Shown piece by piece: positions 1-39,073 of a DNA stretch of 47,261 bases. The notes under the pieces are model-generated. The model searched no databases. It was given only the letters and a program-made list of their open reading frames with translations, and had not been told where the DNA came from. How positions within the stretch are numbered: the first letter of the stretch is position 1; each line of letters opens with the position of its first letter. The DNA lies in assembly GCA_905478415.1 (NCBI GenBank), contig CAJQIG010000002.1, forward strand, positions 71,573-118,833, read 5' to 3'. The stretch comes from an uncultured Patescibacteria group bacterium. GTDB taxonomy: Bacteria; Patescibacteriota; Microgenomatia; UBA1400; PJMF01. A program made the translations under genes and the position numbers.

Positions 1-6
1 ATCGAC

Positions 7-1845
7 ATGGTCCGAGATCCCAACTACCGTTCCCGAGCAGCTCTGACCAACCTTCTAACTGCAAACTTTGTCTCGTTTGCCGCCGAATATACTCGAGGTG
101 AAGTCATTTCAACCTTTGAAATGGATGTCTCTCCCTCAACGGGTCTTTTAGGAATGTTGGCTTCATATACCCAAGGTTTGTTGGGTATGGGCGAGAATTT
201 TGAGTCTAAACTCGAAACCAAAGGAAAATCAATCACCAGAGCTCAACTCGAAACAAACAACATGTATAAGCTCGATCAATGGGCAGTTGCAGCTCCCATT
301 GGCTCTCTTTTTATCTGGAACAGTCCTCCAGGTAAAGTTTCTGAAGGATATGCTGGGCTCAACTCACACTCGTTTATTTTTGCCTACGAAAAAACTTCCG
401 CAGATAAAGTGGTTCTTCATCAATATCGAACCTGGATGAATCTGGAACAACACCAAACCTTTCAAACTGCGCTCGATACCCAAAACGCTGAACTAAAAAC
501 AACATCAGTTCAAGACTCACACCAGATCATTAATAACACTGCAGTTCTCTCACCCAAAGACATTGGTTGTGAAAACGCTCAGCAACTTGTTTCTCTATTA
601 GAAAAAAATGCCTATGAGTCCTCAGATACTTGGAGGACAAAACCTAGTGAGATGCCCCAAATCGATGAGGCAGAGTATGCCACCTTTAGAGATTTTTTAT
701 TAAGCCTGTATATCCGAACTGTAGTGCCACTATTGTTAGCAGAAGTTCCCGAAGTAGAAAGCACTGAAGACCCACAGTGGCAAACTTTTATTGCTTCAAA
801 AAAATATACAGATTTGATCTCGCAACTGGACATTGCCTTTGGCATCCTTGCCTACCAGCCACTGGTAAAGTGGGTTGAAGCCGCAGATGAAACACCTCAA
901 AAATCAAAGAATATCCTTCAAAAGCTTTTCTCGAAATCTAACAAAGAAACAAACAAAATTACTGAGATGAGCCAATCTCAAATTGAAGAAGGTCTTATGA
1001 CCATGTATCAACTCCGGGTAGCCAAACTAAAAGGTGAAAAAATGGATGCTCAAAAAGTCTCTACTTATAACACCTTAGCCCAGGTGCTCCTTTCAACTAC
1101 GTCAAGGGGTCTCAGCCTTGGTCAGTGCGGCATTGGCACCTTTATTCCCACAAAAATGTTACAAACAGGCATGCCTCGAGCCCAGCTCGGGGCCCCACAA
1201 CTACTTAATCCCGGATTGGCAGCAGGTCTACCAGCTAAAGAAAAACTAGAGCTCTCTAACCATCTCAATACTCTCAGTTTTTTGCCGCTCGTACTTCCAA
1301 ATGGCGAAACCTGGTACATCAAAGCCCAGCACTACACTGAATATAAAACTTTCTTCACCCAAAACGAAGTTGAGTACTCCCCGCAAGGATTTCCCATCGG
1401 CCCCTGCGGCTGGGCACTTCGAGGTGATTCTCGAGGCGAAGATGAATTAGTGCTGACTGTTTCTGAATATAACCAACTCCAAGCATTGCAAGCCTTACTC
1501 TTACAGGACTTACTCGATAATCCGGAAGAAAGTTTTGATGTATTTGCCTCCAAATTGCTCGATTCTGCGCAGTCTGAATCAGAAAAAGTCGAGATTGCAG
1601 AAGTTATCGCACTGCTCAAAGAAGCCCTTAAAACTACGCTCGATATTGGGGACCTACTCTTTAGTGAGTTCTTTGATGCACTCAAGCTGTTTGCCCACCC
1701 TGTTTTGTCCGAGGTTGCTCAGAAAGTATCGCTCTCAAACTTTATTTTCAATCCGGAAGAAACTGCTTCGCAGGTTGTGGTTATTTATCAACAATCGACA
1801 CAAAAAATGCATGTAAATCCTGATAGAAGGTCAGCACTTCAGTAG
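7..1845 (+). CDS. hypothetical protein, 612 aa (possibly 5'-truncated by the window edge)
   Basis: Uninterrupted 1.8-kb ORF. The frame is still open at bases 1-6, so the real start may lie upstream. It ends 27 nt before the next co-directional ORF. No family motif recognised. Confidence 0.6.
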   Translation: MVRDPNYRSRAALTNLLTANFVSFAAEYTRGEVISTFEMDVSPSTGLLGMLASYTQGLLGMGENFESKLETKGKSITRAQLETNNMYKLDQWAVAAPIGSLFIWNSPPGKVSEGYAGLNSHSFIFAYEKTSADKVVLHQYRTWMNLEQHQTFQTALDTQNAELKTTSVQDSHQIINNTAVLSPKDIGCENAQQLVSLLEKNAYESSDTWRTKPSEMPQIDEAEYATFRDFLLSLYIRTVVPLLLAEVPEVESTEDPQWQTFIASKKYTDLISQLDIAFGILAYQPLVKWVEAADETPQKSKNILQKLFSKSNKETNKITEMSQSQIEEGLMTMYQLRVAKLKGEKMDAQKVSTYNTLAQVLLSTTSRGLSLGQCGIGTFIPTKMLQTGMPRAQLGAPQLLNPGLAAGLPAKEKLELSNHLNTLSFLPLVLPNGETWYIKAQHYTEYKTFFTQNEVEYSPQGFPIGPCGWALRGDSRGEDELVLTVSEYNQLQALQALLLQDLLDNPEESFDVFASKLLDSAQSESEKVEIAEVIALLKEALKTTLDIGDLLFSEFFDALKLFAHPVLSEVAQKVSLSNFIFNPEETASQVVVIYQQSTQKMHVNPDRRSALQ

Positions 1846-1857
1846 ACCCCCGCACCC

Positions 1858-1866
1858 TGGTATACT
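1858..1866 (+). promoter_or_regulatory. extended -10 box TGgTATACT, 6 nt upstream of ATG 1873 (leaderless-type promoter)
   Basis: TG at 1858-1859 and TATACT at 1861-1866. The spacer is ATCACC and contains no SD. Confidence 0.5.
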
Positions 1867-1872
1867 ATCACC

Positions 1873-4800
1873 ATGGCGGCTGAAGGAAATTCACCAGATT
1901 TAGTGCGTGTCGAAGACGTAAAACGTCTTGACCCTTCTTTGACCCTAAAACGCAACCGTTCTCAACTCGAAGCACTTGTAACTGAACTCCAAAAAGCTGT
2001 TCGAAATGACGAGCTTCAAGGAGGCTTAATAGTCAGGGCTCCACTGAGTGATGGCAGAATTCACGAACTCACTGTTTCCCATTCAACTCGAGAAGGTCTT
2101 TCGACTGAAGAGCAAAAGGATACTCTTTTTTGGTCTGATTATGCTGCCCTAATGCTCGACGTTGCTCAAAAGTTTAAGCTCACAGACTTGCGAGATGAGT
2201 TTTCACAGTATGACAAAACAGCTCGACAACTGGACACATGGGCCCATCAACCAAATGCTCCCAGCGAGACAGTTGATGAACTCACAATGTGGAATAATCG
2301 CTACAAAGCTGCAGAGCTCCTTCAAAAACTTTCAGGAGCCCTCTCAACAGGAATTACAGAGACTGAAGAAGAAGTTGTCGATGAAGAACCTGATAAAGAT
2401 GAAAAGACTACTGAATCAGAAGACGAAAAAGCAAAAAAACTACTAGCCGCCCTTGCAGCTCAAAAAGATGAAAGAGAAGCAAACTCAGCTGTTGTCACAG
2501 CTCCACCTGGAGGAGATGATGGTGACACCGCCCAACCAGCCTCAACAGAACCCAATCTCGAGCCAGACCAAAAAATCGATCCAAGCCGCCCACTGACAGA
2601 ACAACTTTCTCGAGATCAACTCCGCCAGTACAACACCAATGTTGCTTGGATGTCGAGCTTCACGCTCCTCCAAATTGCCGATAGCATGGGTGTTGATATT
2701 AATCAGCTTGATCCAGCCCTCAGAGCCGAAATCACCAACTATGCCACCGATTTTCTTGCCCGTGAAGGCGATATTAATGCACTTCTTAGAGGTAGTCCAA
2801 CAGCCCGCCTCCGATCTATTCGAGGTCTGCAACGATATCTAACAGAAAAAAGCTTTTTCGCTACACATAATGTCTCGATGGGCATTGTCCAAAAAACCGA
2901 TGACATTTTTGAGAAAAAAATTCACACAATTTTAGGTGACAACAATGGGGTAGTCGATAAAAATATCGAAAAAACAGTCGACGCTATTATTATTGCCCAC
3001 GGTGACAAAGCAGCAGAACTAATACAATCATTCGATAAGAAAAAAATTGAACTTATCTTTGGACTAGAAACATATAACCTTCAACCAGCTCAAATTGAAG
3101 CCTTTAAAAGCTCACTTATTTCATATGCTCAAGTTCGTATTGTTGAAATTGTTCTCCATACTCAAGATGAAGCTGTTAAAGATGGTCTCGTCACTGATAC
3201 AAATCCATCAGAACAATCGGCTGAACAACTCGCATCCCAAATTAGTAGTGTTAGAGCCACCATTTCTCAACATTCCTCTAATGATGATGAAAAAGGTGAG
3301 CTTACCGCTGATGCCACTACCCATAAAACAGGTAGCACAAGTAAAAAAATCACGTTTGCACTTGGCCAAAATGAGAAAATTTTTGGATCTTACTGGCGCA
3401 GCCTCAGTCCAGAACTACAAGCTGTAGCACTCGTTTCACTTGGGGCAGGACATCTCGTTAAGCAACCCGGTGACCATCCCCCTGGTGGCTACGAAATGCC
3501 AATTAACATCGCCGAGTTTAACCCAAGCGTATTAGGTAAATACGCCAAGGCGGTAGAACAACAGCAAAAAATATATGCTTCCATTGAGTTGGAAATGGCC
3601 CAAGAGATCTTTGAATATAATGTCGCCGTTGAACGAGCTGAAGTCTTGGCCATGAACATGCAGGCTGAGTACATCAAACAAAACGAGATGGTGCTTCGAC
3701 TCCAGATGGCACAAGAAATTGCTTTAGAACAAGCCAGTCTCCAACAAATGATGACTACTGAGTCTGCCCTCGAAGAACCTCAACGACAAACTGACTCTCC
3801 GAGCAACAAGCTTAGTAAAACCATGCGTTCTGTGGGACGTAAAAAATCTGCTAGTGCTGCTGGAAGTCAAGCTAAAGAGTTAGCATCAAAAAAACTTAAT
3901 ACTGCAGTGGCTGGTGCAACTCAAAAAGCACTCGGAGCAATTCCAGGTGTCGGTGCCGCCTTGGCTGGTGGCCACATTGCTCTTTCTAAGATGATTGGTG
4001 AAAAAAACACCAATAAGCTCATGCTGTTTCTGGGAGGAGGAGCTGCTGCTGGTATTGGCTATGTGGTTGCTAAAACACTCCAGGCACTCCAAACTCTTGG
4101 TGGCATGATTGGAGGAGCCGTCGGGGGGTTTGCTGGATCATTTTTAGGAATTGGTGGCACAGTTGTCGGATTCATTGGAGGCGCAAACCTTGGTGCCGCT
4201 GCACAAAACTGGCTAGCCGGCATCTTTGGAAAAGGCGCTGGAGCCAGCACAACTTCATTTGGATCGAGTGGACTTGGAGGAAGTGTTCTTTCGGGAGGTT
4301 CAAGCCTCCCCACGCTCTCTGCTCCGTCAGCCGCGAGTGTCGCCCAAGGAGCAACAACCGTTACTAATGCCGCGGGAAATGTAGTTGGAGGAATTACTAA
4401 AGCAGTTGGACAAGCTACTCAATCGCTTCCCAGTGCATCGGCTGTGGCAACACAGCCACTTGCTTCTACCCCATTTTTAGAAGGACTCAAAGCTGCCTCT
4501 CAGGCTGGAGCAAAACTTATTTATAGCATTCCCTTTATGTCGGTCATATTAGGAATGAGTATCCCAGCACTCTACACTATTATTGTTTTTCTGGTGATTA
4601 TGGGAGCATTTTTGGTACCAATGCCGTTTACTATTAACTCAAGTAATCCCTCAATTTCTGAGTATGCTCTTATCTCTAAAACAGCATCTCCAGAAGAAAT
4701 TGAAAATAATGTTGAAGAAGACATTACTTATGTTATTAACATTGTCCCCAAATCGGGGTATCAACTTGAAATTAAGCGTGTTGATGATGAGTTTTTAGTT

Positions 4801-5598
4801 CTTGGTGGAGATGCAACTACTCCAACATCCCCGCTGTCTCTCACCTCTTTTGAGGCTGGAAAGTTCTCTTCTCGCCAGGAAGCTGAATATACCGTAACCC
4901 TTTCTGGTGAAGATGCCCTTGTTATTAACACAGTAACTTTTACTGTCGATGTTTTTGATTCCAGTGGAAAATTAGTAACTCAAGGTGAAAGCATTAGCGC
5001 TCTGGGCTTAGTAATTATTGGCGACCCTCCAATTGGTTGTTTTGAATTTGCTCCAGCAGGGATAACTACAAACTACGAAGGTGGCTCAAATACATCCATT
5101 GAGTGGAACCAACAAGATATTGTCAAGTTTTTAAAAGCCTTTATTAATCGAGTTGGCACTAACCCGCAATATCTATCACTCCTCTGTTCAGAGGGTGATA
5201 TTACTGTTCACAAGTGGCCAGCCCACCCAGAACACTTTTGGGGGTGGCAAGTGAATGAAAATAAAATAGGTTTTTACGCAGAGTTCTTTGATGCCAGTAC
5301 TCAGTGGATGGAGTACACATTGGTTCATGAAAGTGGCCACTTAATTAATGATAGAAACCCGGGACTTCAAAACCAGTTTACTCAAATTCAAACAGATGCA
5401 GGCTGCTTCACCTACCCTTTCCCAGGCAGATGCAGTGAGTCTGAAGCTTTTGCAGAAGCCCTTGTTGATTATGTTGTTTGGCAAACCCACAGCTTTAGCT
5501 TTGAGGGTGTGTGGACGGGAGTATTCCCATTCAAGACAATGTACCCATCAGAGTATGCATGGATGCAAACAAATATATTTGGAGGAATCGAGTACTAG
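1873..5598 (+). CDS. large membrane protein with a glycine-zipper block and a C-terminal HExxH (zincin-like) domain; T4SS-associated by context
   Basis: 1241-aa ORF with an acidic, coiled-coil N-terminal half. A Gly-rich GxxxG block (IPGVGAALAGGH ... GGMIGGAVGGFAGSFLGIGGTVVGFIGGANLG) lies at nt ~3920-4300. A hydrophobic segment (IPALYTIIVFLVIMGAFLV) lies at nt ~4560-4620. HESGH is at 5326-5340, followed by the acidic stretch SESEAFAE. Confidence 0.8.
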   Translation: MAAEGNSPDLVRVEDVKRLDPSLTLKRNRSQLEALVTELQKAVRNDELQGGLIVRAPLSDGRIHELTVSHSTREGLSTEEQKDTLFWSDYAALMLDVAQKFKLTDLRDEFSQYDKTARQLDTWAHQPNAPSETVDELTMWNNRYKAAELLQKLSGALSTGITETEEEVVDEEPDKDEKTTESEDEKAKKLLAALAAQKDEREANSAVVTAPPGGDDGDTAQPASTEPNLEPDQKIDPSRPLTEQLSRDQLRQYNTNVAWMSSFTLLQIADSMGVDINQLDPALRAEITNYATDFLAREGDINALLRGSPTARLRSIRGLQRYLTEKSFFATHNVSMGIVQKTDDIFEKKIHTILGDNNGVVDKNIEKTVDAIIIAHGDKAAELIQSFDKKKIELIFGLETYNLQPAQIEAFKSSLISYAQVRIVEIVLHTQDEAVKDGLVTDTNPSEQSAEQLASQISSVRATISQHSSNDDEKGELTADATTHKTGSTSKKITFALGQNEKIFGSYWRSLSPELQAVALVSLGAGHLVKQPGDHPPGGYEMPINIAEFNPSVLGKYAKAVEQQQKIYASIELEMAQEIFEYNVAVERAEVLAMNMQAEYIKQNEMVLRLQMAQEIALEQASLQQMMTTESALEEPQRQTDSPSNKLSKTMRSVGRKKSASAAGSQAKELASKKLNTAVAGATQKALGAIPGVGAALAGGHIALSKMIGEKNTNKLMLFLGGGAAAGIGYVVAKTLQALQTLGGMIGGAVGGFAGSFLGIGGTVVGFIGGANLGAAAQNWLAGIFGKGAGASTTSFGSSGLGGSVLSGGSSLPTLSAPSAASVAQGATTVTNAAGNVVGGITKAVGQATQSLPSASAVATQPLASTPFLEGLKAASQAGAKLIYSIPFMSVILGMSIPALYTIIVFLVIMGAFLVPMPFTINSSNPSISEYALISKTASPEEIENNVEEDITYVINIVPKSGYQLEIKRVDDEFLVLGGDATTPTSPLSLTSFEAGKFSSRQEAEYTVTLSGEDALVINTVTFTVDVFDSSGKLVTQGESISALGLVIIGDPPIGCFEFAPAGITTNYEGGSNTSIEWNQQDIVKFLKAFINRVGTNPQYLSLLCSEGDITVHKWPAHPEHFWGWQVNENKIGFYAEFFDASTQWMEYTLVHESGHLINDRNPGLQNQFTQIQTDAGCFTYPFPGRCSESEAFAEALVDYVVWQTHSFSFEGVWTGVFPFKTMYPSEYAWMQTNIFGGIEY

Positions 5599-5625
5599 TG
5601 GCACTTAAGCCAGAAAAAAAACTAT

Positions 5626-6255
5626 ATGCCAAACGCAAAAAAGCACCTCAATCAAGCCTACGAAGAATCTAAAATTACCCAATCAGGAAAATCAAAAAAA
5701 ATATATTGGTTTATTTTAGGAACGTTAGCAATACTGTTTGTAATTTCGGCAGTTATTACTCAGTTTTTACCTATCGATGAACCTCCTGTTCAACAAAATA
5801 CTTGGGAAGGCGTTACTCCTGGTTATAAACTCACTCAAACAGTCACTGCTCAGCTAGGTTCTCCAGTAGAAATAAAGAAGTTGGCAGGAGAAAAACAACA
5901 GCTGTCATACAAATCAAACGACTTTAAAAGCTACTATAATGAAGTTGTTATTTCCAAAGAAGGAAACGTAGAATTTATTAAAACTCCAATAGCCTATGAT
6001 ACGAACCATACACTCACCAACTACACCGTACTCTACGGTACTCCAGATTTAGAAAGATATGCTTCAGAAATAAGTTCTGCTCTCAAAGCTCATGTCTTTT
6101 TAGAGGAAGGACTTGTTATCATTGCAAATAAAAAAACTGATGTTGTCGAAGCTATTTGGTACTTTGAGCCTACAACTGAGGATGTGTTTTTAAGAACACT
6201 AGGAGAAAAGTTAACCAAAGAACCCAGTCAGCCAGAAGCCTTTCCAGGATTATAA
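5626..6255 (+). CDS. bitopic membrane protein, 209 aa; T4SS-associated by context
   Basis: One N-proximal TM helix (IYWFILGTLAILFVISAVITQF) followed by a soluble domain of ~150 aa. It starts 27 nt after the previous ORF. Confidence 0.7.
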   Translation: MPNAKKHLNQAYEESKITQSGKSKKIYWFILGTLAILFVISAVITQFLPIDEPPVQQNTWEGVTPGYKLTQTVTAQLGSPVEIKKLAGEKQQLSYKSNDFKSYYNEVVISKEGNVEFIKTPIAYDTNHTLTNYTVLYGTPDLERYASEISSALKAHVFLEEGLVIIANKKTDVVEAIWYFEPTTEDVFLRTLGEKLTKEPSQPEAFPGL

Positions 6256-6396
6256 CTACTTTTCACTCCACTGACTTCCTTCACCTAGCACCAAGCACCA
6301 CTTTCCTGTTATTATGGTACGTAAGACTTATTGAGAAGTAAGTAGTTTTTTGCTTGCCTCACAAAAAAAGTATTCAGAAAGTAGTGACTGCCCTAC

Positions 6397-7605
6397 ATGA
6401 GAGAACACCCGATACCTCAAGATATCACCGGCTATAAGTTCCACATAATTGGAAGTATGACTCTTAAGCAATTTTTAGAAATTGCTATTGGTGTGATTGT
6501 TGGCGGCATTATCTATGCATCTAATTTACCAGGAGCAGTTAAGTTTCCCTTAATCCTTGTTGCCGTAGGACTTGGTGCAATGGCAGCCTTTTTACCAATT
6601 GAGGAGCGCCCGCTTGATCATTGGATAACTGTTTTTATCAGGAGTATGTACAAACCTACTCAATTCTTTTGGAAACGAGAACCTCACATTCCCGAGATCT
6701 TCAGCTTTACTCCAAACTTAAACACCACTGTTCAAGAGGACGAAGTTAACCTTGGACCAGTAAAAAAAGAACGAATCAGAGAATACATGACTTCTGTCCC
6801 AAGTACCACTGATCCTTACGCATTCGATGCTGATGAAGTTTCTAGAATGAGTGCTATTTTAGGTTCTTTTTCATCAGTCACTACCTCAAAAACAACGATC
6901 ACTTCAGCCCAAATTGCTCAAAAACCTCAGCTGGGAGTTCGAGTCAGAAATTTCAGACCTCAACACCAAGAGCAAGTGGTCTATGAAAATCAGACAACAG
7001 CTACTCAAGCGACAGCTGTTCCTACCGGTGCACGTGTTGTTGAAGAACAAGTTGGAGCCAACGCAGATCTGACCGAAATGTATGCGGAGCGCCAACAACT
7101 CTCAAAACAACAAAAAAGCGCTGATCAAGTGGCAACCGAAATTTCCATTCCAGAAACCGAAAACATCCATATTGTGGACCCCGCCACACTAGCTCAACAA
7201 GAAGAAAATCAAAGCGCGGCAATGGTACAAAGTGCAAACAACATGACTTTTATGGAGAAGACCGAGGATGGCACTGGGTCAGATACAAAAGCAACAGAAG
7301 CTGCTGCCTTTAATGTGAATCTCCCCTTTCCTGAAGCACCAACAGAACCAAACAAACTGGTGGGAATGGTTTTAACGAAGGCAAATGACCTCGTTACCAA
7401 TGCAATTGTGGAAGTTTTGAAAGCTGATGGAACCGTAGCTCGTGCGGTCAAGACAAATGCTCTTGGTCAGTTCTTTATCACCACCCCACTCGCCAACGGC
7501 AACTACACACTTGAAATCGATAAAGATGGGTTGACATTTGAACCGCTCACGCTAAGTTTAGATGGAACCGTAGTGAAACCAATAGAAATTAGAAGTCTCA
7601 GTTGA
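6397..7605 (+). CDS. PrgI/VirB3-like T4SS membrane protein fused to a carboxypeptidase-regulatory-like beta-sandwich domain
   Basis: The N-terminus HPIPQDITGYKFHIIGSMTLKQF plus two TM helices matches my recollection of the PrgI family. The C-terminus (LVGMVLTKANDLVTNAIVEVLKADG..GQFFITTPLANGNYTLEI) has the CarboxypepD_reg-like pattern. Confidence 0.6.
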   Translation: MREHPIPQDITGYKFHIIGSMTLKQFLEIAIGVIVGGIIYASNLPGAVKFPLILVAVGLGAMAAFLPIEERPLDHWITVFIRSMYKPTQFFWKREPHIPEIFSFTPNLNTTVQEDEVNLGPVKKERIREYMTSVPSTTDPYAFDADEVSRMSAILGSFSSVTTSKTTITSAQIAQKPQLGVRVRNFRPQHQEQVVYENQTTATQATAVPTGARVVEEQVGANADLTEMYAERQQLSKQQKSADQVATEISIPETENIHIVDPATLAQQEENQSAAMVQSANNMTFMEKTEDGTGSDTKATEAAAFNVNLPFPEAPTEPNKLVGMVLTKANDLVTNAIVEVLKADGTVARAVKTNALGQFFITTPLANGNYTLEIDKDGLTFEPLTLSLDGTVVKPIEIRSLS

Positions 7606-7641
7606 GACAAAGGAATAAACCAGTTAAGATAGAAGTACTGC

Positions 7642-8991
7642 ATGCCCGAAAACACACTTCACTCTACCACTCAAAAATTTCTTGATATTTTCGATATTAC
7701 TAATAATGTCGTAATTTTAAAAAATGGAACTGCCTCAATAATCATCCAAGTTGATGCTATGAACTTCGGACTGTTAGCCGAAGAAGAACAAGACAGCATC
7801 ATGTACGCCTATGCTGGACTACTGAACTCTCTAAACTATCCCATCCAGATTATTATTCGTTCTCAAACAAAAGATGTCACTGGCTACCTTCAAATACTCA
7901 AAGACCAAGAAGATAAGACTGCTTCCCGGCCACAGCAACAAAGAATTCGTCGCTACCGTGAATTTGTAACCAACTTAATTCGAGAAAGAAATGTTCTTGA
8001 TAAAAAATTCTACGTCACCATTAGTGCCACGCCACTTGAAGTTGGATTACTCGCCCCACAAAGTTTTGTACCAGGTCAATCTGAAGCACAAATAACCCCA
8101 GAGCAAAGAGCCACCGTTCTCGAGAAGGCTCGCAATTTGCTCGAACCAAAACGTGACCATTTAATTGCACAATTTTCTCGGATAGGTCTCTTTTCTCGAC
8201 AGCTCACCACCCAAGAAATCATTCAGTTTTTCTACCTAAGCTACAATCCAGAGGCATCTGAAGGACAACACATTGCCGACTCTAATAACTACACAACCCC
8301 ACTCGTAACCGCTGGGGTAGAAGGAACTACCATGAACGATGCTCCAATCCCTGCAATGCCGTCACCGGCTCCTGTTGCAGACACGCAACCAGCACAAACC
8401 CCAATGCCTACAGGTCCCGTTCCAGCACCAGCTACAGTCCCACCGCAACTCACTGATACTCCAGTAGCTCCACCAGTTGAACCAATCGTCGAACAAACAC
8501 CAGCTGGAGAATCTATGACTACTCCTTCCACTGCTGGATATACACCAACCCAAATGCCAGCCCAACCAACTACTCCTGCAGCACCACCTGCTCAGCCAGC
8601 TACCACAGAGCCAACGGCTCCTGAGAAACCAACTGTTTCAGCACCTGTTCAAACTCAAACACCAGAACCAATACAACTTGAGCCAACAGCTCCAATTGTC
8701 AAACCAGATATTCCTAAAACTCCTCCAGCTAGCCCTGCTCCAGCTCCAGGCCCCACGTTAGACTCTTCAAAAGGAGAAAGTGATTTGCCAAAGCCAACAC
8801 TTCCCATGGACCCTCCAACGCCAAATCCTACACCTGAAACCCAAACACCAAGTGCTGTTATTGAAACAGCAGAAATCGAGCCTGTGGTACTGCCACCTTC
8901 AGAACCCACTGATACATCTTCACAAAAAACAGAAGAGGCTGTTACTCCAGCTCAGACAGGAACTGACCTACCGCCACTACCAGAAATTTAG
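7642..8991 (+). CDS. T4SS-associated protein with a globular N-domain (~215 aa) and a ~235-aa Pro/Thr/Ala-rich tail
   Basis: 449-aa ORF lying directly between the PrgI-like gene and virB4. The N-terminal pattern FLDIFDITNNVVILKNGTASIIIQVDAMNFGLLAEEEQDSI resembles the N-terminal non-ATPase domain of Gram-positive VirB4/PrgJ-type proteins. That resemblance is from memory and is unverified. Confidence 0.6.
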   Translation: MPENTLHSTTQKFLDIFDITNNVVILKNGTASIIIQVDAMNFGLLAEEEQDSIMYAYAGLLNSLNYPIQIIIRSQTKDVTGYLQILKDQEDKTASRPQQQRIRRYREFVTNLIRERNVLDKKFYVTISATPLEVGLLAPQSFVPGQSEAQITPEQRATVLEKARNLLEPKRDHLIAQFSRIGLFSRQLTTQEIIQFFYLSYNPEASEGQHIADSNNYTTPLVTAGVEGTTMNDAPIPAMPSPAPVADTQPAQTPMPTGPVPAPATVPPQLTDTPVAPPVEPIVEQTPAGESMTTPSTAGYTPTQMPAQPTTPAAPPAQPATTEPTAPEKPTVSAPVQTQTPEPIQLEPTAPIVKPDIPKTPPASPAPAPGPTLDSSKGESDLPKPTLPMDPPTPNPTPETQTPSAVIETAEIEPVVLPPSEPTDTSSQKTEEAVTPAQTGTDLPPLPEI

Positions 8992-9003
8992 TAAGATACA
9001 ACA

Positions 9004-11004
9004 ATGCCTGACCTAAGCTCATTACTACCATTTGGAAAAAAGAAAAAAACTGATTCTACGGCTGATACTAGTCCTGAAGCCGTAGCCCTTCACAAACAAG
9101 AGCACGAGTTAGAAAAACTCAAAGAGTTTTCTAGAGGTTTGGTGACCATCCAAGATATTATTGCTCCAGAAGCAATTGAGGTCGATTTTACCTTTCAAAA
9201 AATAAATGAGACCTTTACTCGCACACTTTTTGTAGCCGGATACCCTCGGTCAGTGCCAGCTAACTGGCTCTCACCTCTTATTAACTTTCCGCATCAGATT
9301 AATGTTTCAATGTTTGTCTATCCGGTTGATTCTGGAGAAATTCTTGATAACCTGAAACGAAAAATAACAGAAATGGAGGCTGAAATTCAGTCTGATTTGC
9401 GTGCCGGAAAAATTAGTAACATTAACACTGAGGTTAAGCTCGAAGATGCCCGATACATTCGAGAAGAATTAGCAAAAGGCTCAGAGCGCTTCTTCCAGTT
9501 TGGCCTTTATGTGACTATTCAAGCCAAGGACAAGGAAGAACTTGATAGAGTCACTAAAGCTATTCAATCTTCTTTAGGATCACTTTTGATTGTTTCAAAA
9601 AAAGCTACGCTCCAAATGGATGATGGCTTTAAGTCAACACTACCAATGGGTGTCGACAAGCTCCAGGTTACTCGAAACATGGATACAACATCACTCGCAA
9701 CAACTTTCCCCTTTACTTCTAGTGAGTTAACTATGGAAACCGGCATTGTATATGGCATTAACGAGCATAATGATTCACTGGTTATCTTCGATCGCTTTAA
9801 GATGGAAAACGCCAACATGGTCATCTTTGCTAAGTCTGGTGCTGGCAAGTCATATACGGTGAAGCTCGAGATTCTTAGACAGCTCATGTTTGGGGCAGAA
9901 GTGATTGTCCTCGACCCAGAACATGAGTACGAAGACCTTTCAGTCGCTGCCGAAGGTGAATATATTAATTTTACCTTTAACTCTAAAGCCAAAATTAATC
10001 CTTTCGACTTATCAAATCTCTATGAAGAGGGTGAAAACGAGTTGGGACAAAAGATTATTGGTCTCCATGGATTGTTGAAAGTCATGCTTGGTGAAATGAC
10101 TGCACAACAAGACGCACTCCTTGATCGAGCACTTGTAGCAGCCTACAAAGCCAAAGGTATTACACCAGATCCAGCCACCCAAACAAATGAACCACCCCTT
10201 ATGGAGGATGTCTATAAAGCTTTGATTGGTATGGAAGATGGCGACGCTAATGATATTGCTGCTCGACTTGAAAAATTCATCACTGGTTCGTTCCGCGGAA
10301 TTTTCGACCAAAAATCAAACATTAACATTACTAACCAGCTCACCGTTTTTTCAGTGAAAGAAATGGAAGAAGGACTCCGCCCGATTGCCATGTACATGAT
10401 TTTGGACTTTATTTGGACTCGTGTTAAAAAAGACCTCAAAAAACGAATTTTAGTTGTTGATGAAGCCTGGTACTTTATGAAGCATCCAGATTCAGCTTCG
10501 TTTATCCACTCAATGGTCAAGCGTGCTCGAAAATACTACTTAGGAATTACCACTATTACCCAAGATGTCGAGGATTTCTTGCATAATGATTACGGTAGAG
10601 CCATTGTGACCAATGCTTCGATTCAGTTCTTGATGAAACAATCTACTGCATCTGTGCCAATCTTGTCAGAAACCTTCTATTTATCTCAAGGTGAAAGACA
10701 ACTTCTTGTTACGGCCGATGTTGGAGAAGGTATTTTCTTTGCTGGACAGAACCATGTGGCTCTCAAAGTTGTTGCTTCTCCAGAAGAACACGAGCTGATC
10801 ACCACTAACCCTGAAGAAATGTTTAAGCGCCAAGAAGACAAAAAAGCACTTGATGACGCAGTTGCCAAACCTGCACCACTACAACAAAAACCACAAGAAC
10901 CGGTCGCTCAACAAAAGCTCCAAGAAAAAATGCAATCAAAGCCTACAGAGCGTTCTTCGCAAAATTTATATTCTATTGACGACTACGTTCCGCCTGAAAA
11001 ATAA
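9004..11004 (+). CDS. virB4: VirB4/TrsE/PrgJ-family type IV secretion ATPase
   Basis: Walker A AKSGAGKS (GAGKS at 9838-9852), Walker B ILVVDEAWYF, and the N-domain motif AGYPRSVPANWLSPL. It starts 12 nt after the previous ORF. Confidence 0.85.
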   Translation: MPDLSSLLPFGKKKKTDSTADTSPEAVALHKQEHELEKLKEFSRGLVTIQDIIAPEAIEVDFTFQKINETFTRTLFVAGYPRSVPANWLSPLINFPHQINVSMFVYPVDSGEILDNLKRKITEMEAEIQSDLRAGKISNINTEVKLEDARYIREELAKGSERFFQFGLYVTIQAKDKEELDRVTKAIQSSLGSLLIVSKKATLQMDDGFKSTLPMGVDKLQVTRNMDTTSLATTFPFTSSELTMETGIVYGINEHNDSLVIFDRFKMENANMVIFAKSGAGKSYTVKLEILRQLMFGAEVIVLDPEHEYEDLSVAAEGEYINFTFNSKAKINPFDLSNLYEEGENELGQKIIGLHGLLKVMLGEMTAQQDALLDRALVAAYKAKGITPDPATQTNEPPLMEDVYKALIGMEDGDANDIAARLEKFITGSFRGIFDQKSNINITNQLTVFSVKEMEEGLRPIAMYMILDFIWTRVKKDLKKRILVVDEAWYFMKHPDSASFIHSMVKRARKYYLGITTITQDVEDFLHNDYGRAIVTNASIQFLMKQSTASVPILSETFYLSQGERQLLVTADVGEGIFFAGQNHVALKVVASPEEHELITTNPEEMFKRQEDKKALDDAVAKPAPLQQKPQEPVAQQKLQEKMQSKPTERSSQNLYSIDDYVPPEK

Positions 11005-11137
11005 TTTTCAGACTGCTAGAGCAACCTATTTCGCCCCTTGCTAAATGTGGAAAACTTTTTGTATAACTAGGGTGTTATCTTTGAGACAATTCGTATTCTC
11101 AAAAAACACCCACTGCCCCCAATTAAGAACTAGTACG

Positions 11138-11146
11138 TGTTAGAAT
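11138..11146 (+). promoter_or_regulatory. extended -10 box TGtTAGAAT, 9 nt upstream of the dnaA ATG
   Basis: TG at 11138-11139 and TAGAAT at 11141-11146. There is no SD before ATG 11156. A one-mismatch DnaA box, TGTGGAaAA, lies at 11046-11054. Confidence 0.45.
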
Positions 11147-11155
11147 TTTTTGCAT

Positions 11156-12733
11156 ATGTCTTCTTTGCCAGATGGAGTTACAACTGCTCAAGTACAAAAA
11201 ATATGGAAGAGTGTTTGTGCTGAGTTACAGCTTCAGCTATCCCCCGCTGTTTATAACACTTGGATTGTTTCTAACCCCCTTACTAGTTTGGTTTTTCTTG
11301 ACGATACGCAAGCACTGGCAACAATTACGAGCCCTACCGCTTTCCACTCAACAAACTTGAAGAAAAATCTCCACTTACAAATCAAACATTCTCTCGACAT
11401 ACACACTACTAGGAACTGTAATATCGAGTATCGAATTGGCGACCCGAGCTTAGCTTTTGAAACACCAAGCTCAGGGACTGTTAACAACCAAACAGCACCA
11501 GGATTTGGAAGCATTAAGACAGACCTCTATCCCGAACAAAAACCCCAAGTACAGCAGCAGTCACAACAAAACTACTCACACCAGATTGGACACAACCAAG
11601 AACATCAAAATCAACAAACCACTTCACCTCGAGTGGAAGATCTTTTTTCTGAACAGTCACTTTCTTCAGCACAGAGTGATCGGGTTGGAGCTATCTCGAG
11701 AAAAATTGGTCTTAGAAATGACTTTACATTCGAGACATTTGCCGTTTCTACCACTAATGAAATGGCTCATGCGGCTGCTACTGCCGTCTCAAACAGACCT
11801 GGAAATGCCTATAATCCTCTCTTTCTCTATGGAGGAGTTGGGGTTGGAAAAACCCATCTCATGCACGCAATTGGTAATAATATTTTAAAAAACAATAGTA
11901 ACTGTCGCATTATTTACTCGACTGGTGAAGAGTTTACCAATGAAATTGTCCATGCAATTCGAAACAAAAAAGCCAATGTGTTTAAAGGGAAATACAGATC
12001 TGCAGATGTGCTTCTTGTTGATGATATTCAATTTATAGCTGGTAAAAATGCTGTGCAGGAAGAATTTTTCCATACCTTTAATGCACTCACTAAACAACTC
12101 AGCCAAATTGTCCTCACTAGCGACAGGCCGCCCCATGAAATGAACCTTCTCGAGGACAGACTGCGCTCTCGTTTTGAAGCAGGACTGATGATAGATATTG
12201 GGCAACCTTCGTTTGAACTTCGGACAGCTATTTTACTCGTCAAAGCAAAAGCTGCTCGCATTGATATTCCTATGGAAATTGCTAAAACCATTGCCTCTCA
12301 AGTAGAGAGTGCTCGAAAAATTGAAGGTATCATCACAAGTATTAGGTCTGAAGTGGAACTGAAACGCCGAACAATAACTCCAGAACTTATTCAAGAGATC
12401 CTCCGAGTAGAGATCACTGAAAAAAGACCAATGATTAGAGTTACTCCTTCAGAAATTATCAGAACCGTTGCAAATCACTACAAATTTAAGCAAACTGCTA
12501 TTAAGGGAGCTCGGCGTTCAAAGCCATTGGTCACGGCGCGCCATATCGCTATGTACTTACTCAAAGAGGATCTTTCTCTTCCACTCACGGAAATTGGAAA
12601 GTGGTTCTCAAACCGTGATCACACAAGTGTTTTGCATGCCGTTAACAAAATAAATAAGGAAATGGCTATTAACGATCAAGTTCGTCAAGATATTTCGGCA
12701 CTACGAATGACTTTGACTGCTATATCAAGATAA
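11156..12733 (+). CDS. dnaA: chromosomal replication initiator DnaA
   Basis: AAA+ Walker A GGVGVGKTHL, LLVDDIQF, a C-terminal DNA-binding helix region (RDHTSVLHA) and a Gln-rich domain I-III linker. I prefer ATG 11156 to the TTG at 11150. Confidence 0.95.
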   Translation: MSSLPDGVTTAQVQKIWKSVCAELQLQLSPAVYNTWIVSNPLTSLVFLDDTQALATITSPTAFHSTNLKKNLHLQIKHSLDIHTTRNCNIEYRIGDPSLAFETPSSGTVNNQTAPGFGSIKTDLYPEQKPQVQQQSQQNYSHQIGHNQEHQNQQTTSPRVEDLFSEQSLSSAQSDRVGAISRKIGLRNDFTFETFAVSTTNEMAHAAATAVSNRPGNAYNPLFLYGGVGVGKTHLMHAIGNNILKNNSNCRIIYSTGEEFTNEIVHAIRNKKANVFKGKYRSADVLLVDDIQFIAGKNAVQEEFFHTFNALTKQLSQIVLTSDRPPHEMNLLEDRLRSRFEAGLMIDIGQPSFELRTAILLVKAKAARIDIPMEIAKTIASQVESARKIEGIITSIRSEVELKRRTITPELIQEILRVEITEKRPMIRVTPSEIIRTVANHYKFKQTAIKGARRSKPLVTARHIAMYLLKEDLSLPLTEIGKWFSNRDHTSVLHAVNKINKEMAINDQVRQDISALRMTLTAISR

Positions 12734-12752
12734 GACATCTCTCAAATAGCAC

Positions 12753-13012
12753 TTATCCACGATTGTGGATAAAGTCGTGGATAAAGTGGGGAAAGGATAG
12801 TGCATAGTTGTTAACAAAAAAGGGTTATGTGTATAACTTTGTAAAAACTATTCACAGTGCTCAGTGTTTTGCAGATAAGATATTCACACTAGACCTTGGC
12901 GAGTATCCACATATAATTAACACTAGGTTTCTTGAGGTGTATTGCTAGTTATGCACGATTTTGGCACTACCTACTACTACAACTACAAGTTATATATATA
13001 CATATAGTTAAG
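12753..13012. promoter_or_regulatory. candidate oriC: DnaA-box cluster plus an AT-rich element between dnaA and dnaN
   Basis: The DnaA-box 9-mers are TTATCCACg at 12753-12761, TGTGGATAA at 12764-12772 (perfect match, opposite orientation) and cGTGGATAA at 12776-12784. Further boxes are cTATtCACA at 12848-12856, aTATtCACA at 12880-12888 and gTATCCACA at 12903-12911. The AT-rich run TTATATATATACATATAGTTA lies at 12990-13010. Confidence 0.75.
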
Positions 13013-13018
13013 AGCATC

Positions 13019-14131
13019 ATGAAAATTCAAATCTTACAAGAAAACTTACAAAAGGGATTATCCTATCTCTCAAAAGCTATTCCATCAAACCCTCAATTAC
13101 CAATTTTATCTTCAATTCTTTTTGAAGCAAAAGAAACTGGTTGTGTCATTTCAGCAACTGATTTGTATTTTGGGGTGAGAGCTCAATTACAGTCATCGGT
13201 AAAAGAAGAAGGAACGATAGTGATTCCTGGTAAACAATTTAAAGAATTGATTTCTTCTTTACCTTCAGGAAAGTTGGAATTAACCTTTACTGATGGAACA
13301 TTAACTATTGCTTCAACTCACTCAAAAACAAAGTTGCAATGTCAGTCTGCCGAAGAATATCCTCAATTTCCTCAAGTTGAGGGCCAAACCTATTCTTTTT
13401 CTAGTCAACAATTCCAAGATATTGATCGAGCAGTAGGCTTCTCTGCCTCAACAGATCAAGCAAGACCAGTGTTAACGTCAATCCTGTTTGAAATATCCCA
13501 AAAGGGTCTTTCTACCGTGACGACGGATGGTTTTAGGTTAAGTATGTATACAGTTCCGAATTCACAGTCTCAGACAGCTTCACGGCTACTTTTACAAGCG
13601 AAGGCACTGCAAGAAGTTAATCGAATTGTGAAGCAAATTGATGAACAGACTGTGAGCTTCGTTGTTTCTGAAGAATTAAAGCAAGTGTATTTTTCGGTCG
13701 GTGATGTAGAAATGTACATCCGTTTAATCGAGGGAGAGTATCCTCCCTATGAGAAAATTGTTCCTTCTGTTTTTACAACAGAAGTTACTTTTTCCGTTGG
13801 AGAATTAGAAGATAATATTAAGCGCGCTCTTATCTTTGCTCGTGATGCTTCCAACATTATTAAATTTACGGTTGGAGAAGATAAAACAGTCCAGCTTTCG
13901 GCCTCGTCTCCTTCTCTCGGCACCTTTGAGGGGCAACTGCAGTCAGTGACTGTCTCTGGTGACGCCGTCGAAATTGCCTTCAATGCTAAATATGTGCAAG
14001 ACATTCTTAAGGCTATTGCTGGAGAAAGTTTGTGGATGGGAATGGGAGAAAGTTTAAAACCAGTTCTCTGTCGTGCAACTGATTCCGACGCAGCCGAGTA
14101 TGTGATTATGCCGTTTAAGGTAAATGGGTAG
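13019..14131 (+). CDS. dnaN: DNA polymerase III beta sliding clamp
   Basis: MKIQILQENLQKGLSYLSKAIPSNPQLPILSSILFEA is a typical beta-clamp N-terminus. The length is 370 aa when counted from ATG 13019. The ORF-track start at 12932 runs through the DnaA boxes. Confidence 0.93.
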   Translation: MKIQILQENLQKGLSYLSKAIPSNPQLPILSSILFEAKETGCVISATDLYFGVRAQLQSSVKEEGTIVIPGKQFKELISSLPSGKLELTFTDGTLTIASTHSKTKLQCQSAEEYPQFPQVEGQTYSFSSQQFQDIDRAVGFSASTDQARPVLTSILFEISQKGLSTVTTDGFRLSMYTVPNSQSQTASRLLLQAKALQEVNRIVKQIDEQTVSFVVSEELKQVYFSVGDVEMYIRLIEGEYPPYEKIVPSVFTTEVTFSVGELEDNIKRALIFARDASNIIKFTVGEDKTVQLSASSPSLGTFEGQLQSVTVSGDAVEIAFNAKYVQDILKAIAGESLWMGMGESLKPVLCRATDSDAAEYVIMPFKVNG

Positions 14132-25394: not shown

Positions 25395-27206
25395 TTAGGA
25401 ACCGGTGCCAACTAAGTATTTAGCTGACCATGGTCGATAGGTTGACGAGTATGTGTTCTGATAAAGGACTTCGCCCTCAGCATCTTTAACAGTGTGTGTA
25501 AACTTGGCTTTCAAGCCTGAAACAGCCCAATCTACTTGCTTTTTGACGCCTGCTGGAAGGGTTGGGTCGTTGATATATTCTGTAGGGAGAGCAGGGGTGG
25601 CTCCCCATTTTTTGTAGTCGGTGACTTCGGTAGTGCGACCATCACTGGTGCCAAAGAGTTCAACGGTAAGGTGTAAATTTTCTCTATCGTTTGTGGTATG
25701 AATAAGCACGTAGTGGTCAGTGTCATTAATGAATCTAAGATCAATATTTCCAGAGTAGACAGTGGCATCAAAACCAGGGTCTGAGTTGAGTTCGTAATAG
25801 CTGACTCTATAGCTATGGGGGAGTCGACGGGAAATATTAAGGCCGGCATCAAGAAGAGAACGGAACAGTGTCGAACTCACTTGGCAGACACCACCACCAT
25901 CACCGAGTTCTGTTCTGCCGTTAGCAATTACATATGCAGGCTGAAACCCAGTAGCTTTCGAGACTTCACCGAGAGTTTTATTAAATGAAAACTCTTCACC
26001 AGGTGCTATGAGTTTGTTATTAACTCGAGCAGCGGTTACGGCTACATTATTTATTCTGGTTGGAATACTGTGATAGTAGTAACTCTCTCCAAAACCAATT
26101 CGTTCACTAATACCGTAGCCATTTGTTGCAGACAGTATAATGGCTGGTTCGAGCGTCGTAATGGGGAGCAGAATCTCGGTCTCTGTGGTTTCACTCTCTG
26201 AAAGCTTGTCTATTTCAGAAGCTAAGAGTTCAAAAGTCTTTTCGGTATCTAGTTTTCGGCCTTTTCGGTGAGGTGCGAACTCAGTGACGGTTTTTGTTTC
26301 TTCAGAATACTCAAAAACAGCGTTTTGTGGTTCTCTATAGATTTTTTCTGACCACGTGTCTAAGAATTCTTGAGTTGTATCTTTGGAAATGTCTTCCGGA
26401 AAGCGCAAGAGGGAGATGATATCTCGATCGGTAAAGTAGATTGAGATGTCTTTATCGTACTTAAGAGTTATCTGGGTGCCCACAAATTTTTTGGCACGCT
26501 CTTTAAATGAAGCAACTTCTTCATCTGTTAACGTTGCGCTCGTTGAGGCAACTTGGAGGGGAATGTTGAACTGTTCAGCGGCTATAGCAGCTGCAATAGC
26601 CTGGGCATTTTCTTCGACAAGCACTTTTCGACCTGTTTTTCCTTCAAAAACAGAGAGAGAACTCGGTGTGCCAGAATAGGTGAGGGTTGCTGTTGGTTCT
26701 TTGCCTTCAACATCAACGTTCTCGGCTAGTATTGAGACGAGTGTATCTATTGATTCTTGGTTGATCTCAAGATTGGAGGTGAGGTGCGTGGGGTTGGTGA
26801 AACTGGTTATGAGTTGTTTAATGCGAGTAGTGAGGGAATCTTCTTTGCCGTGGAGGGCAGCAACTGAAGCTAAGTAGTGTGTGTTTCTTTTCAAATTAAG
26901 TTCGGCTCCGCTTGAGGCAATTTGGATGTCATCGACCGATACTACTATAGTAGCTTCTGGAATTTCTGATTGGCGTTGCTCTAAAAGTAGTAGTGCCTCT
27001 GGTAAAGTTGTTCCTCCTATATAGATGCCATCTATGGTTGTGTTGGGTAAGATCTTGTCTTCTAAGTTTTTATCGAGTAGAAATAAACCAGAAAAGGCAA
27101 GACCGAGTCCAAATGCGATTAAAACTACTAACCAACGATCCCAAGGAAGTTTGTCTCCAATCAAGAGTTCAGAAACAAAACTGTGTGTGTAAGGTGGTTT
27201 TTTCAT
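25395..27206 (-). CDS. VanW-family protein with a C-terminal G5-like domain
   Basis: An N-terminal TM helix. The VanW core is GDGGGVCQVSSTLFRSLLDAGLNISRRLPHSYRVSYY. Confidence 0.85.
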   Translation of the reverse strand: MKKPPYTHSFVSELLIGDKLPWDRWLVVLIAFGLGLAFSGLFLLDKNLEDKILPNTTIDGIYIGGTTLPEALLLLEQRQSEIPEATIVVSVDDIQIASSGAELNLKRNTHYLASVAALHGKEDSLTTRIKQLITSFTNPTHLTSNLEINQESIDTLVSILAENVDVEGKEPTATLTYSGTPSSLSVFEGKTGRKVLVEENAQAIAAAIAAEQFNIPLQVASTSATLTDEEVASFKERAKKFVGTQITLKYDKDISIYFTDRDIISLLRFPEDISKDTTQEFLDTWSEKIYREPQNAVFEYSEETKTVTEFAPHRKGRKLDTEKTFELLASEIDKLSESETTETEILLPITTLEPAIILSATNGYGISERIGFGESYYYHSIPTRINNVAVTAARVNNKLIAPGEEFSFNKTLGEVSKATGFQPAYVIANGRTELGDGGGVCQVSSTLFRSLLDAGLNISRRLPHSYRVSYYELNSDPGFDATVYSGNIDLRFINDTDHYVLIHTTNDRENLHLTVELFGTSDGRTTEVTDYKKWGATPALPTEYINDPTLPAGVKKQVDWAVSGLKAKFTHTVKDAEGEVLYQNTYSSTYRPWSAKYLVGTGS

Positions 27207-35212: not shown

Positions 35213-35222
35213 TAAGAAAGAT

Positions 35223-39058: not shown

Positions 39059-39064
39059 GCATCT

Positions 39065-39073
39065 AGTATAGCA
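39065..39073 (-). promoter_or_regulatory. extended -10 box TGcTATACT, 6 nt upstream of the T4CP ATG
   Basis: The - strand reads CTGCTATACT AGATGC ATG, with no SD. Confidence 0.5.

Follow-up and report, generated by a model that had tools for sequence, protein, structure and literature searches.

The gene at positions 1873 to 5598 (forward strand) of a 47,261-nucleotide stretch of DNA from an uncultured Patescibacteria group bacterium (contig CAJQIG010000002.1, positions 71,573 to 118,833; hereafter the window) encodes a 1241-residue protein that ends in a predicted zinc metallopeptidase domain and belongs to an operon for a type IV secretion system (T4SS). The C-terminal domain of this protein (the head) and the gene that follows it form an exchangeable two-part cassette; this co-swapped downstream gene was absent from a first-pass annotation of the same DNA and changes the picture that it gave. 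The interpretation to which we give about an even chance is that the protein is an accessory T4SS subunit, namely a membrane-tethered peptidase that cuts the cell envelope, whose head is exchangeable and is accompanied by a head-specific partner of guard type. The partner is most likely such a guard, an inhibitor or regulator that would protect the producer from the peptidase.

The open reading frame starts with ATG, and its translation is a T4SS-associated scaffold with a zincin head that has full-length homologues of about 52% identity in which synteny is kept. The coordinates given in the first-pass annotation for the frame, its motifs and its segments were reproduced when the sequence was rechecked. 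From the N-terminus, the protein consists of an acidic domain (residues 1-650, nucleotides 1873-3822, all on the forward strand) that is family-specific and presumed to be a cytoplasmic scaffold; a basic glycine-zipper block (residues 651-790, 3823-4242) in which a Lys/Arg-rich lead-in precedes approximately four Gly/Ala-rich hydrophobic helices of marginal hydrophobicity; a nearly chargeless linker recognized by its Ser/Ala/Gly/Thr-rich composition (residues 791-878, 4243-4506); a hydrophobic segment (residues 879-921, 4507-4635, Kyte-Doolittle 2.58) that contains one confidently predicted membrane helix (residues 897-915, 4561-4617); an immunoglobulin (Ig)-like beta-sandwich spacer (residues 922-1049, 4636-5019); and the head (residues 1050-1241, 5020-5595), a predicted zincin of the gluzincin group, which opens with the junction motif G-D-P-P-I-G-C (residues 1050-1056, 5020-5040), the point of head exchange. 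The linker and the strong hydrophobic segment had both been described before and were found again at these places. The Ig-like domain, which had been proposed to begin at TASPEE, is a confident beta-sandwich prediction of about 125 residues: residues 930 to 1050 or so are all-beta in an AlphaFold model with a predicted local distance difference test score (pLDDT) of 74-89, and their Foldseek matches are generic beta-sandwiches of cohesin, CARDB, integrin and C3.

The last 190 or so residues are predicted to adopt a gluzincin-type zinc metallopeptidase fold, which is supported by conservation, profile comparison and structural modelling. Conservation was counted in aligned homologous domains, sampled at a clustering level of no more than 50% identity. 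Within the HESGH motif (residues 1152-1156, 5326-5340), H1152, E1153 and H1156, proposed to be two zinc ligands and the catalytic glutamate, are invariant in 132 of 132 domains. The downstream motif E1191-A-F-A-E1195 (5443-5457), in which E1191 is the proposed third zinc ligand and E1195 a supporting glutamate, retains each of these two residues in 130 of 131 homologues and F1193 in 127 of 131, and Y1181 (5413-5415), a candidate transition-state-stabilizing residue, is a tyrosine in 115 of 130. The junction is similarly constrained (G1050 in 136 of 137 homologues, P1052 in 117 of 137, C1056 in 138 of 140). An AlphaFold model of the head built on a 50-sequence alignment reached a pLDDT of 94.5 and a predicted TM score (pTM) of 0.90, where an earlier alignment of five sequences had given the head a pLDDT of only about 40. 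In this model, strands at 65-70, 79-83 and 86-90 (domain numbering) are followed by a long helix (98-116) that carries HExxH at 107-111, the position expected of a zincin active-site helix, and the next long helix (144-157) carries ExFAE with its glutamates at E146 and E150. The two outcomes named in the first-pass annotation as refuting a zincin, loss of HExxH among homologues and its placement off such a helix, were thus both contradicted.

The best matches of the head, by fold and by sequence, are zincins, in agreement with the earlier proposal of a C-terminal HExxH domain of this kind. The top Foldseek matches in the Protein Data Bank (PDB) are all zincins, led by the Bacteroides structure 4l7a, the lethal factor of anthrax and PPEP-1, and some of the top matches in a viral structure library, all of them weak, are lethal-factor-like or other peptidases. 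A profile of the head compared with PDB sequences matched CapP (E 5.7e-4, in the HExxH region only), 9urd (1.3e-3), lethal factor (1.5e-3) and PPEP-1 (4.5e-3). The alignments with lethal factor and PPEP-1 span HExxH, the EFFAE helix and, at the C-terminus, a helix of the pattern P-x-x-[YF]-x-F. The third zinc ligand of these two enzymes comes from the EFFAE helix, and E1191 aligns with the first glutamate of their ExFFAE motif, which we take to be E735 in lethal factor and E185 in PPEP-1; the suggestion that the stretch SESEAFAE could provide the third ligand fits this alignment. Y1181 aligns with the tyrosine of the lethal factor sequence '...LTSYGRTN', presumably Tyr728, but in the printed alignment not with Tyr178 of PPEP-1. 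Similarity to these M34 gluzincins (lethal factor, PPEP-1/Zmp1) is marginal, at 9-15% identity and a TM score of about 0.5, and the head differs from them in having extra N-terminal strands and four cysteines and in being tethered to the membrane on a T4SS scaffold. The putative zinc-binding metallopeptidases, or substrate import-associated zinc metallohydrolase lipoproteins, of Bacteroides (4l7a, 9urd; Peptidase_Mx1) gave both the best Foldseek match (4l7a, E 0.018) and the second-best profile match in the PDB (9urd), with an alignment that begins at the sheet, takes in HExxH and ends at an EDF-x-E helix; they differ in being lipoproteins of outer-membrane nutrient-uptake loci.

The family was delimited by an exhaustive profile search of representatives with the last 321 residues as the query (E 1e-3 or better), a profile that comprises the Ig-like domain as well as the zincin head and that samples two head types. 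Matches were found in 343 clusters at 50% identity, most of them proteins of 800-1670 residues with the match at the extreme C-terminus, and 152 representatives (P numbers below) were retrieved for detailed comparison. Word-indexed protein searches returned three matches to the full protein, one to its C-terminal third and one to the N-terminal profile, a search of genome contigs with the single protein returned two loci, and metagenome scans with the Ig-like domain returned none. Close homologues come from 'Candidatus Pacebacteria' metagenome-assembled genomes (MAGs) from groundwater, where they are annotated 'hypothetical protein'. In 19 of the 152 representatives the Ig-like part alone was matched, and these proteins end in a different domain of about 150 residues with the motifs H..D and HLHYE. 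This alternative head is Peptidase_M23 above the Pfam threshold (P0144 with 46.9 bits; also P0120 and P0071), and the M23-headed relatives are annotated as murein endopeptidases. The N-terminal scaffold, glycine zipper, membrane helix, Ig-like domain and junction are common to M23-headed and zincin-headed proteins; at the junction, the M23-headed relatives have GxPxxGCWP.

The borders of the exchange are visible when the window is compared with a locus whose big protein is M23-headed (L012; other loci of the family are likewise given L numbers). Similarity between the two big proteins stops at residue 1057, at the junction G-x-P-x-x-G-C; the small genes that follow show no similarity; and nucleotide similarity returns exactly at the start codon of the PrgI gene. 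No recombination site or repeat was detected at the exchange borders in this DNA comparison. Identities between the remaining genes of the two loci are 79% for VirB4, 68% for TrsD, 65% for DnaA, 45% for PrgI and 32% for the soluble proteins of 612 and 648 residues encoded upstream. M23-headed loci occupy the same position as the window's, with VirB4 proteins 76-83% identical to those of the window and its close zincin-headed relatives. In a VirB4 tree, the M23-headed loci L012 and L013 nest among the zincin-headed window, L001 and L008 (79-83% identity), while the zincin-headed L007, L009 and L011 have VirB4 proteins only 57-60% identical to those of this group. Because M23-headed loci nest among zincin-headed ones, the swap is recent or recurrent and does not reflect a deep split between clades.

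The other half of the cassette is, in the window, a gene for a 209-residue single-pass membrane protein (5626-6255, forward strand) with a membrane helix at residues 26-44 and an ectodomain of about 160 residues, the predicted head-specific partner. A homologous single-pass membrane protein of approximately 180-217 residues is encoded directly downstream of the big gene in nine of nine zincin-headed loci (the window, L001, L004, L005 and L007-L011). In all five sequenced M23-headed loci (L006, L012-L015) the downstream gene instead encodes a single-pass membrane protein of about 316-331 residues from an unrelated family, whose members are homologous to one another and not to the family of about 200 residues; a sixth M23-headed contig, which comes without DNA, has a 334-residue gene in the partner's place. 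The association of head type with partner family (9/9 versus 5/5) gives a Fisher p of 5e-4 with relatedness ignored, a value that overstates independence because the loci are related. Comparison of the two partner families by hhalign aligned only the membrane-helix region, and no homology was detected between the ectodomains; hhalign thus gives no support to the view that one family is a one-domain and the other a two-domain form of a single fold, for example one of VirB8/NTF2-like type. Neither family has a match in Pfam or the PDB. The motif W-x-G-[IV]-T-P-G in the family of about 200 residues faintly resembles BamE/DUF4309-type domains (E 0.03-0.1), which is a lead only. The partner ectodomain is predicted to lie in the same compartment as the head. 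A GTDB representative (L005, JACKFX010000007.1) has a zincin head 59% identical to that of the window together with a partner of about 200 residues; its record is titled 'Pseudomonadales bacterium isolate HK-STAS-PATE-16', and the PATE name and gene content suggest a mislabelled Patescibacteria MAG.

The cassette sits within a T4SS operon. Downstream of the partner gene, on the forward strand, are genes for a PrgI/VirB3-like protein (6397-7605; Pfam PrgI 1.1e-7) fused to a CarboxypepD_reg domain, a TrsD/VirB4-N-like protein (7642-8991) with a weak NCBIfam TrsD match, and a VirB4 ATPase of CD1110/FATA type (9004-11004; TraG P-loop 2.5e-21; NCBIfam conju_CD1110 381 bits against a cutoff of 325), followed on the same strand by dnaA (11150-12733), dnaN (12932-14131) and yidC. 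The family gene adjoins PrgI-TrsD-VirB4 in all 13 loci or contigs that extend into the neighbouring genes, and dnaA/dnaN lie beyond the T4SS genes wherever the relatives' contigs reach that far. Two locations occur: upstream of PrgI, which is the arrangement of the window, and immediately after VirB4, where L007 and L009 have shorter zincin-headed members. By gene content and order, the window's operon matches a T4SS that has been described for Patescibacteria as chromosomal, close to the origin and of Gram-positive (MPF-FATA-like) type (PMC12102498, Quinonero-Coronel et al. 2025). Upstream of the big gene, the same operon encodes a 612-residue soluble protein (7-1845, forward strand) with no membrane helix, signal peptide or family match; it is conserved in synteny (640 residues in L001, 648 residues and 32% identical in L012) and could either be secreted as a substrate or act in the cytoplasm together with the N-terminal domain of the big protein.

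The scaffold that precedes the head was analyzed for composition, periodicity and topology. The N-terminal 650 residues have an isoelectric point (pI) of 4.77, with 105 Asp/Glu against 68 Lys/Arg; of the acidic coiled coil that the first-pass annotation saw in this half, the acidity stands and the coiled coil was not confirmed: a crude heptad scan, a home-made and weak test, found no clear coiled-coil segment. The region has no match in Pfam, NCBIfam, the PDB or PHROGs, its profile found only chance-level matches in the PDB, it has no signal peptide, and paralogy with the 612-residue protein encoded upstream was looked for and not found. A 'Host_attach' match (E 0.019, below cutoff) fell in an acidic low-complexity stretch and was dismissed. 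The N-terminal region was detected by jackhmmer in 38 of the 152 family representatives, M23-headed ones among them, and the longer members (P0144, P0136, P0119, P0084, P0085, P0089 and P0071, of 1570-1670 residues) have two to three tandem copies of a module equivalent to residues 150-340 or so of the window's protein, which points to variation in the length of the cytoplasmic scaffold by whole modules. The Gly-rich block (residues 651-790) is 23% Gly and 19% Ala with a pI of 10.7. It contains six GxxxGxxxG motifs where 1.9 are expected from shuffled sequences (p=0.02), and Gly spacing at i+4 has a z score of 2.1 in this protein alone; pooled over 79 family representatives, the spacings i+4, i+8 and i+12 have z scores of 14.9, 11.5 and 7.5. 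The zipper pattern is thus real and more than a matter of composition. Three or more zipper motifs are found in the 300 residues upstream of the Ig-like domain in 79 of 116 relatives, and a strong membrane helix within 70 residues upstream of it in 92 of 116.

Insertion energies were estimated on an approximate biological hydrophobicity scale. By this scale, residues 897-915 are the only autonomous membrane helix (score -1.3), and the zipper helices score +3 to +4; the glycine-zipper membrane block of the earlier description is therefore borne out in its periodicity, and its embedding in the membrane was not confirmed. The helix at 897-915 has a mildly basic N-terminal flank and an acidic C-terminal flank (2 Lys/Arg versus 7 Asp/Glu), from which an N-in/C-out orientation may be inferred. 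All four cysteines of the protein are within the 190-residue head; in the family at large, conservation of C1056 and C1105 is approximately 98%, and the four closest full-length homologues retain all four without exception. The acidic C-terminal flank, the Ig-like domain, the conserved cysteines in the head and the equivalence of the head to M23 argue for a C-terminus outside the cell, and the lack of a signal peptide and the acidity of the N-terminal region argue for a cytoplasmic N-terminus. The proposal of an extracytoplasmic C-terminal domain accordingly fits both the charges around the last membrane helix and the location of the cysteines.

In the mechanism favoured here, the acidic N-terminal domain would remain in the cytoplasm, the glycine-zipper block and the one strong membrane helix would tie the protein to the cell membrane, and the Ig-like spacer would hold the zinc endopeptidase of about 190 residues, of lethal-factor/PPEP-1 type, outside the cell. 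In the putative active site, H1152, H1156 and E1191 would bind zinc, E1153 would act as the general base and Y1181 as a helper. The head would then cut peptide bonds of the envelope at the site of the machine; its substrate might be the peptides of peptidoglycan, by analogy with the M23 head of close relatives, or wall-anchored proteins, by analogy with PPEP-1. It would thereby do the job of the VirB1, PrgK, TraG or CwlT-type hydrolases of other T4SSs, possibly on the wall of the host cell at the contact zone, while the partner, sharing the compartment of the head, would restrain the peptidase and spare the producer. The comparisons above establish the order of the domains, the catalytic motifs and the fold, as well as the linkage to the T4SS and the joint swap of head and partner, and topology, substrate and the role of the partner are the inferred elements of this mechanism.

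Several observations weigh against it. To our knowledge, the substrates of known HExxH zincins of lethal-factor/PPEP type are proteins and not peptidoglycan, and replacement by M23 is for this reason no proof of the same substrate. The Foldseek matches to zincins are weak (TM 0.46-0.53, probability 0.87-0.90, E of at least 0.018, none at 0.001), and the profile E values against known zincins in the PDB are only about 1e-3 to 5e-3. None of 50 head members matches a Pfam family at its gathering score, and the head is therefore filed as a distant, unannotated relative of M34/ATLF-type gluzincins rather than a member; the ATLF family (PF07737) was touched by 4 of the 50 (best E 0.015) and not by the window's protein itself, and Peptidase_Mx1 by 5 of the 50, all below threshold, and the window's protein searched against Pfam, NCBIfam and PHROGs gave nothing above threshold. 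The partner of about 200 residues has no recognizable inhibitor fold and no conserved metal-binding residue. The number of membrane crossings is uncertain, and an odd count contributed by the zipper would place the head in the cytoplasm.

The co-exchange of head and partner can also be read as a polymorphic effector-immunity system, in which the big protein, or a C-terminal part released from it, is a weapon presented or delivered by the T4SS to a host or competitor, with the zincin or M23 head as the toxin, the partner as its immunity protein and the glycine zipper as an aid to insertion into the target membrane; we regard this as unlikely. A conserved N-terminal part joined at a conserved junction to an exchangeable C-terminal enzyme, with a co-varying adjacent gene, is the hallmark of polymorphic toxins, among whose heads lethal-factor-like metallopeptidases (Tox-ALF) are one type (Zhang et al. 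2012, PMC3482391). The shared compartment of partner ectodomain and head fits such a system, as does the evolution of the big protein, which is much faster than that of the machine (52% identity with the L001 homologue, compared with 90% for VirB4 of the same pair), and bacteria-killing T4SSs with effector-immunity pairs, known from Xanthomonas and Stenotrophomonas, were counted in its favour. Unlike polymorphic toxins, however, the gene is present in a single copy per locus at a fixed position in the T4SS core operon, no RHS or filamentous repeats, releasing peptidase, cassette arrays or known T4SS secretion signal were found, and the flanks that were inspected contained neither heads nor partners as orphan cassettes; the head types so far encountered in the family number two. 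The strong membrane anchor favours retention in the producer, and the protein at the corresponding position in Southlakia epibionticum ML1, identified by position and not by sequence, is essential, as a structural part would be. A form of this reading in which the T4SS has a built-in, modular weapon, with zincin, M23 and perhaps M15 heads pushed or delivered onto the host envelope and the partner as immunity factor, is likewise unlikely; if true, it would mean that a polymorphic effector-immunity system is wired directly into the T4SS of a monoderm episymbiont, and would give a concrete reason for the essentiality of the T4SS in epibiotic growth.

Two further explanations concern what the protein acts on and what part of the machine it is. 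The head might be a protein-specific surface protease like PPEP-1, one that leaves peptidoglycan alone and cleaves particular envelope proteins, such as the producer's own T4SS pilins or adhesins or proteins on the host surface, either to control attachment and release or to mature components of the machine, with the partner as substrate adaptor or regulator. The nearest characterized relatives (lethal factor and PPEP-1) are indeed protein endopeptidases, VirB2-like pilin arrays are present in patescibacterial T4SS loci (PMC12102498), and the sortase gene of the window (40272-41054, forward strand) implies that wall-anchored proteins exist, but the head is interchangeable with M23, a domain best known for cutting peptidoglycan cross-links, its M23-headed counterparts carry the murein endopeptidase annotation, and no candidate substrate was identified, for which reasons we consider a dedicated surface protease quite improbable. 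It is still harder to credit that the zipper and hydrophobic block form a translocon, as in 'extended VirB6' proteins, with the C-terminal domains as accessories, and we rate such a channel subunit very improbable. No VirB6 homologue was recognized in the part of the operon within the window, the zipper block is kept across the family, and large hydrophilic domains together with at least five hydrophobic helices are the make-up of extended VirB6 proteins (PMC12857230), but neither the window's protein nor its relatives match TrbL/VirB6 or PrgH, only one segment confidently spans the membrane in addition to about four marginal Gly-zipper helices, L001 encodes about 5 kb upstream a separate 565-residue polytopic protein (four to five predicted membrane helices, in segments below the score threshold), and ML1 has a VirB6-like gene of its own besides the peptidase-tailed one. 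The resemblances to extended VirB6 and to phage tape-measure proteins that the first-pass annotation had pointed out were thus not substantiated: the window's protein has no PHROG match, the tape-measure matches of relatives cover their M23 domain only, and the genomic context is a T4SS operon and not a tail module, for which reasons a phage tape-measure protein was rejected.

Among known systems, the envelope-cutting accessory subunit is most readily compared with the VirB1-like wall hydrolases (PrgK of pCF10, TraG of pIP501, CwlT of ICEBs1 and TcpG of pCW3), which are likewise encoded in VirB4 operons and membrane-anchored, with an extracytoplasmic hydrolytic domain. PrgK carries an M23-type domain. 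The window's protein differs from them in that its hydrolytic domain is an HExxH zincin instead of a lytic transglycosylase, lysozyme, CHAP, NlpC/P60 or M23 domain (none of the first four was found in it by Pfam and NCBIfam searches) and in having an N-terminal part of about 880 residues (acidic domain plus glycine zipper), a spacer of Ig-like fold and a partner gene specific to the head, none of which is known from those hydrolases. The positional orthologues that carry Peptidase_M23 at this place lend strong support to the earlier idea that a metallopeptidase stands where other T4SSs have their wall hydrolase. VirB1-like proteins with Peptidase_M23 have been reported from Patescibacteria (PMC12102498), and SEML1_0007 of S. 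epibionticum ML1, an 1113-residue protein encoded directly after VirB4 near dnaA, has a C-terminal Hedgehog/DD-peptidase fold and is essential by transposon sequencing (Tn-seq; PMC10633639, Wang et al. 2023, Tables S1/S2). SEML1_0007 is likened to the family, by position and description and not by sequence, as a large protein beside VirB4 with a small C-terminal peptidase, and its place in the locus is the one that zincin-headed members take in L007 and L009; its head fold is M15-like and not a zincin. Hydrolases of the cell wall linked to T4SSs are therefore already well known, and the essential, peptidase-tailed, VirB4-adjacent proteins of ML1 are already tabulated. In the searchable literature we found neither the HExxH domain family, nor the scaffold of acidic domain, glycine zipper, membrane helix, Ig-like domain and junction, nor the joint exchange of head and partner.

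S. epibionticum ML1, the one genetically tractable patescibacterium studied by Tn-seq, requires its T4SS for epibiotic growth (PMC10633639). The present comparison defines a family of T4SS-linked scaffolds as widespread (343 clusters at 50% identity), names a previously unannotated zinc-peptidase domain with clear catalytic residues at their predicted outer tip, and identifies the tip and the following gene as a unit swapped between closely related machines. Handles are thereby gained on the substrate, on the partner as a possible inhibitor, and on whose wall is cut, that of the producer or that of the host; host range or attack on the host may be tuned by the exchange of enzymatic heads. With Pfam-type models of the head and of both partner families, hundreds of 'hypothetical proteins' could be given an annotation.

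Other genes of the window bear on its T4SS and cell envelope. The PrgI/VirB3-like protein (6397-7605) has two membrane helices within residues 20-68 or so, a Gln/Thr/Ala-rich linker of about 230 residues and a CarboxypepD_reg-type beta-sandwich at residues 321-379 (E 3.9e-6); a VirB3 protein with an external Ig-like domain is unusual. The same PrgI-CarboxypepD_reg fusion is found in L001, L006, L007, L009, L012 and L014, and L008 gave the CarboxypepD_reg match only. The TrsD/VirB4-N-like protein (7642-8991) is matched over residues 1-230 and continues in a low-complexity, Pro/Thr/Ala-rich tail of about 220 residues, which varies widely in length among relatives (total lengths 211-547 residues). 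A VirD4-type coupling protein of 837 residues (36620-39133, reverse strand; TrwB_AAD_bind 3.2e-12, TraG-D_C) is encoded about 25 kb from VirB4, adjoining a RadA/Sms-like gene (35205-36623), whereas the PrgI gene is the immediate neighbour of the coupling protein gene in L007 and L009. The window also encodes a VanW/PG_binding_4 protein (25395-27206, reverse strand) and a free-standing LysM-Peptidase_M23 protein (44625-45734, forward strand; M23 109 bits), and the genome thus has an M23 enzyme of its own besides the zincin-headed protein. Over both strands of the 47 kb, ARAGORN found no tRNA gene and no Rfam family reached its gathering score. Cumulative GC skew over positions 1-14000 falls steadily to a minimum at approximately 12-14 kb, beside dnaA/dnaN, and then rises, which fits a replication origin at this place; the T4SS operon (7-11004, forward strand), lying on the strand of negative GC skew and directed toward the origin, would be transcribed head-on to replication.

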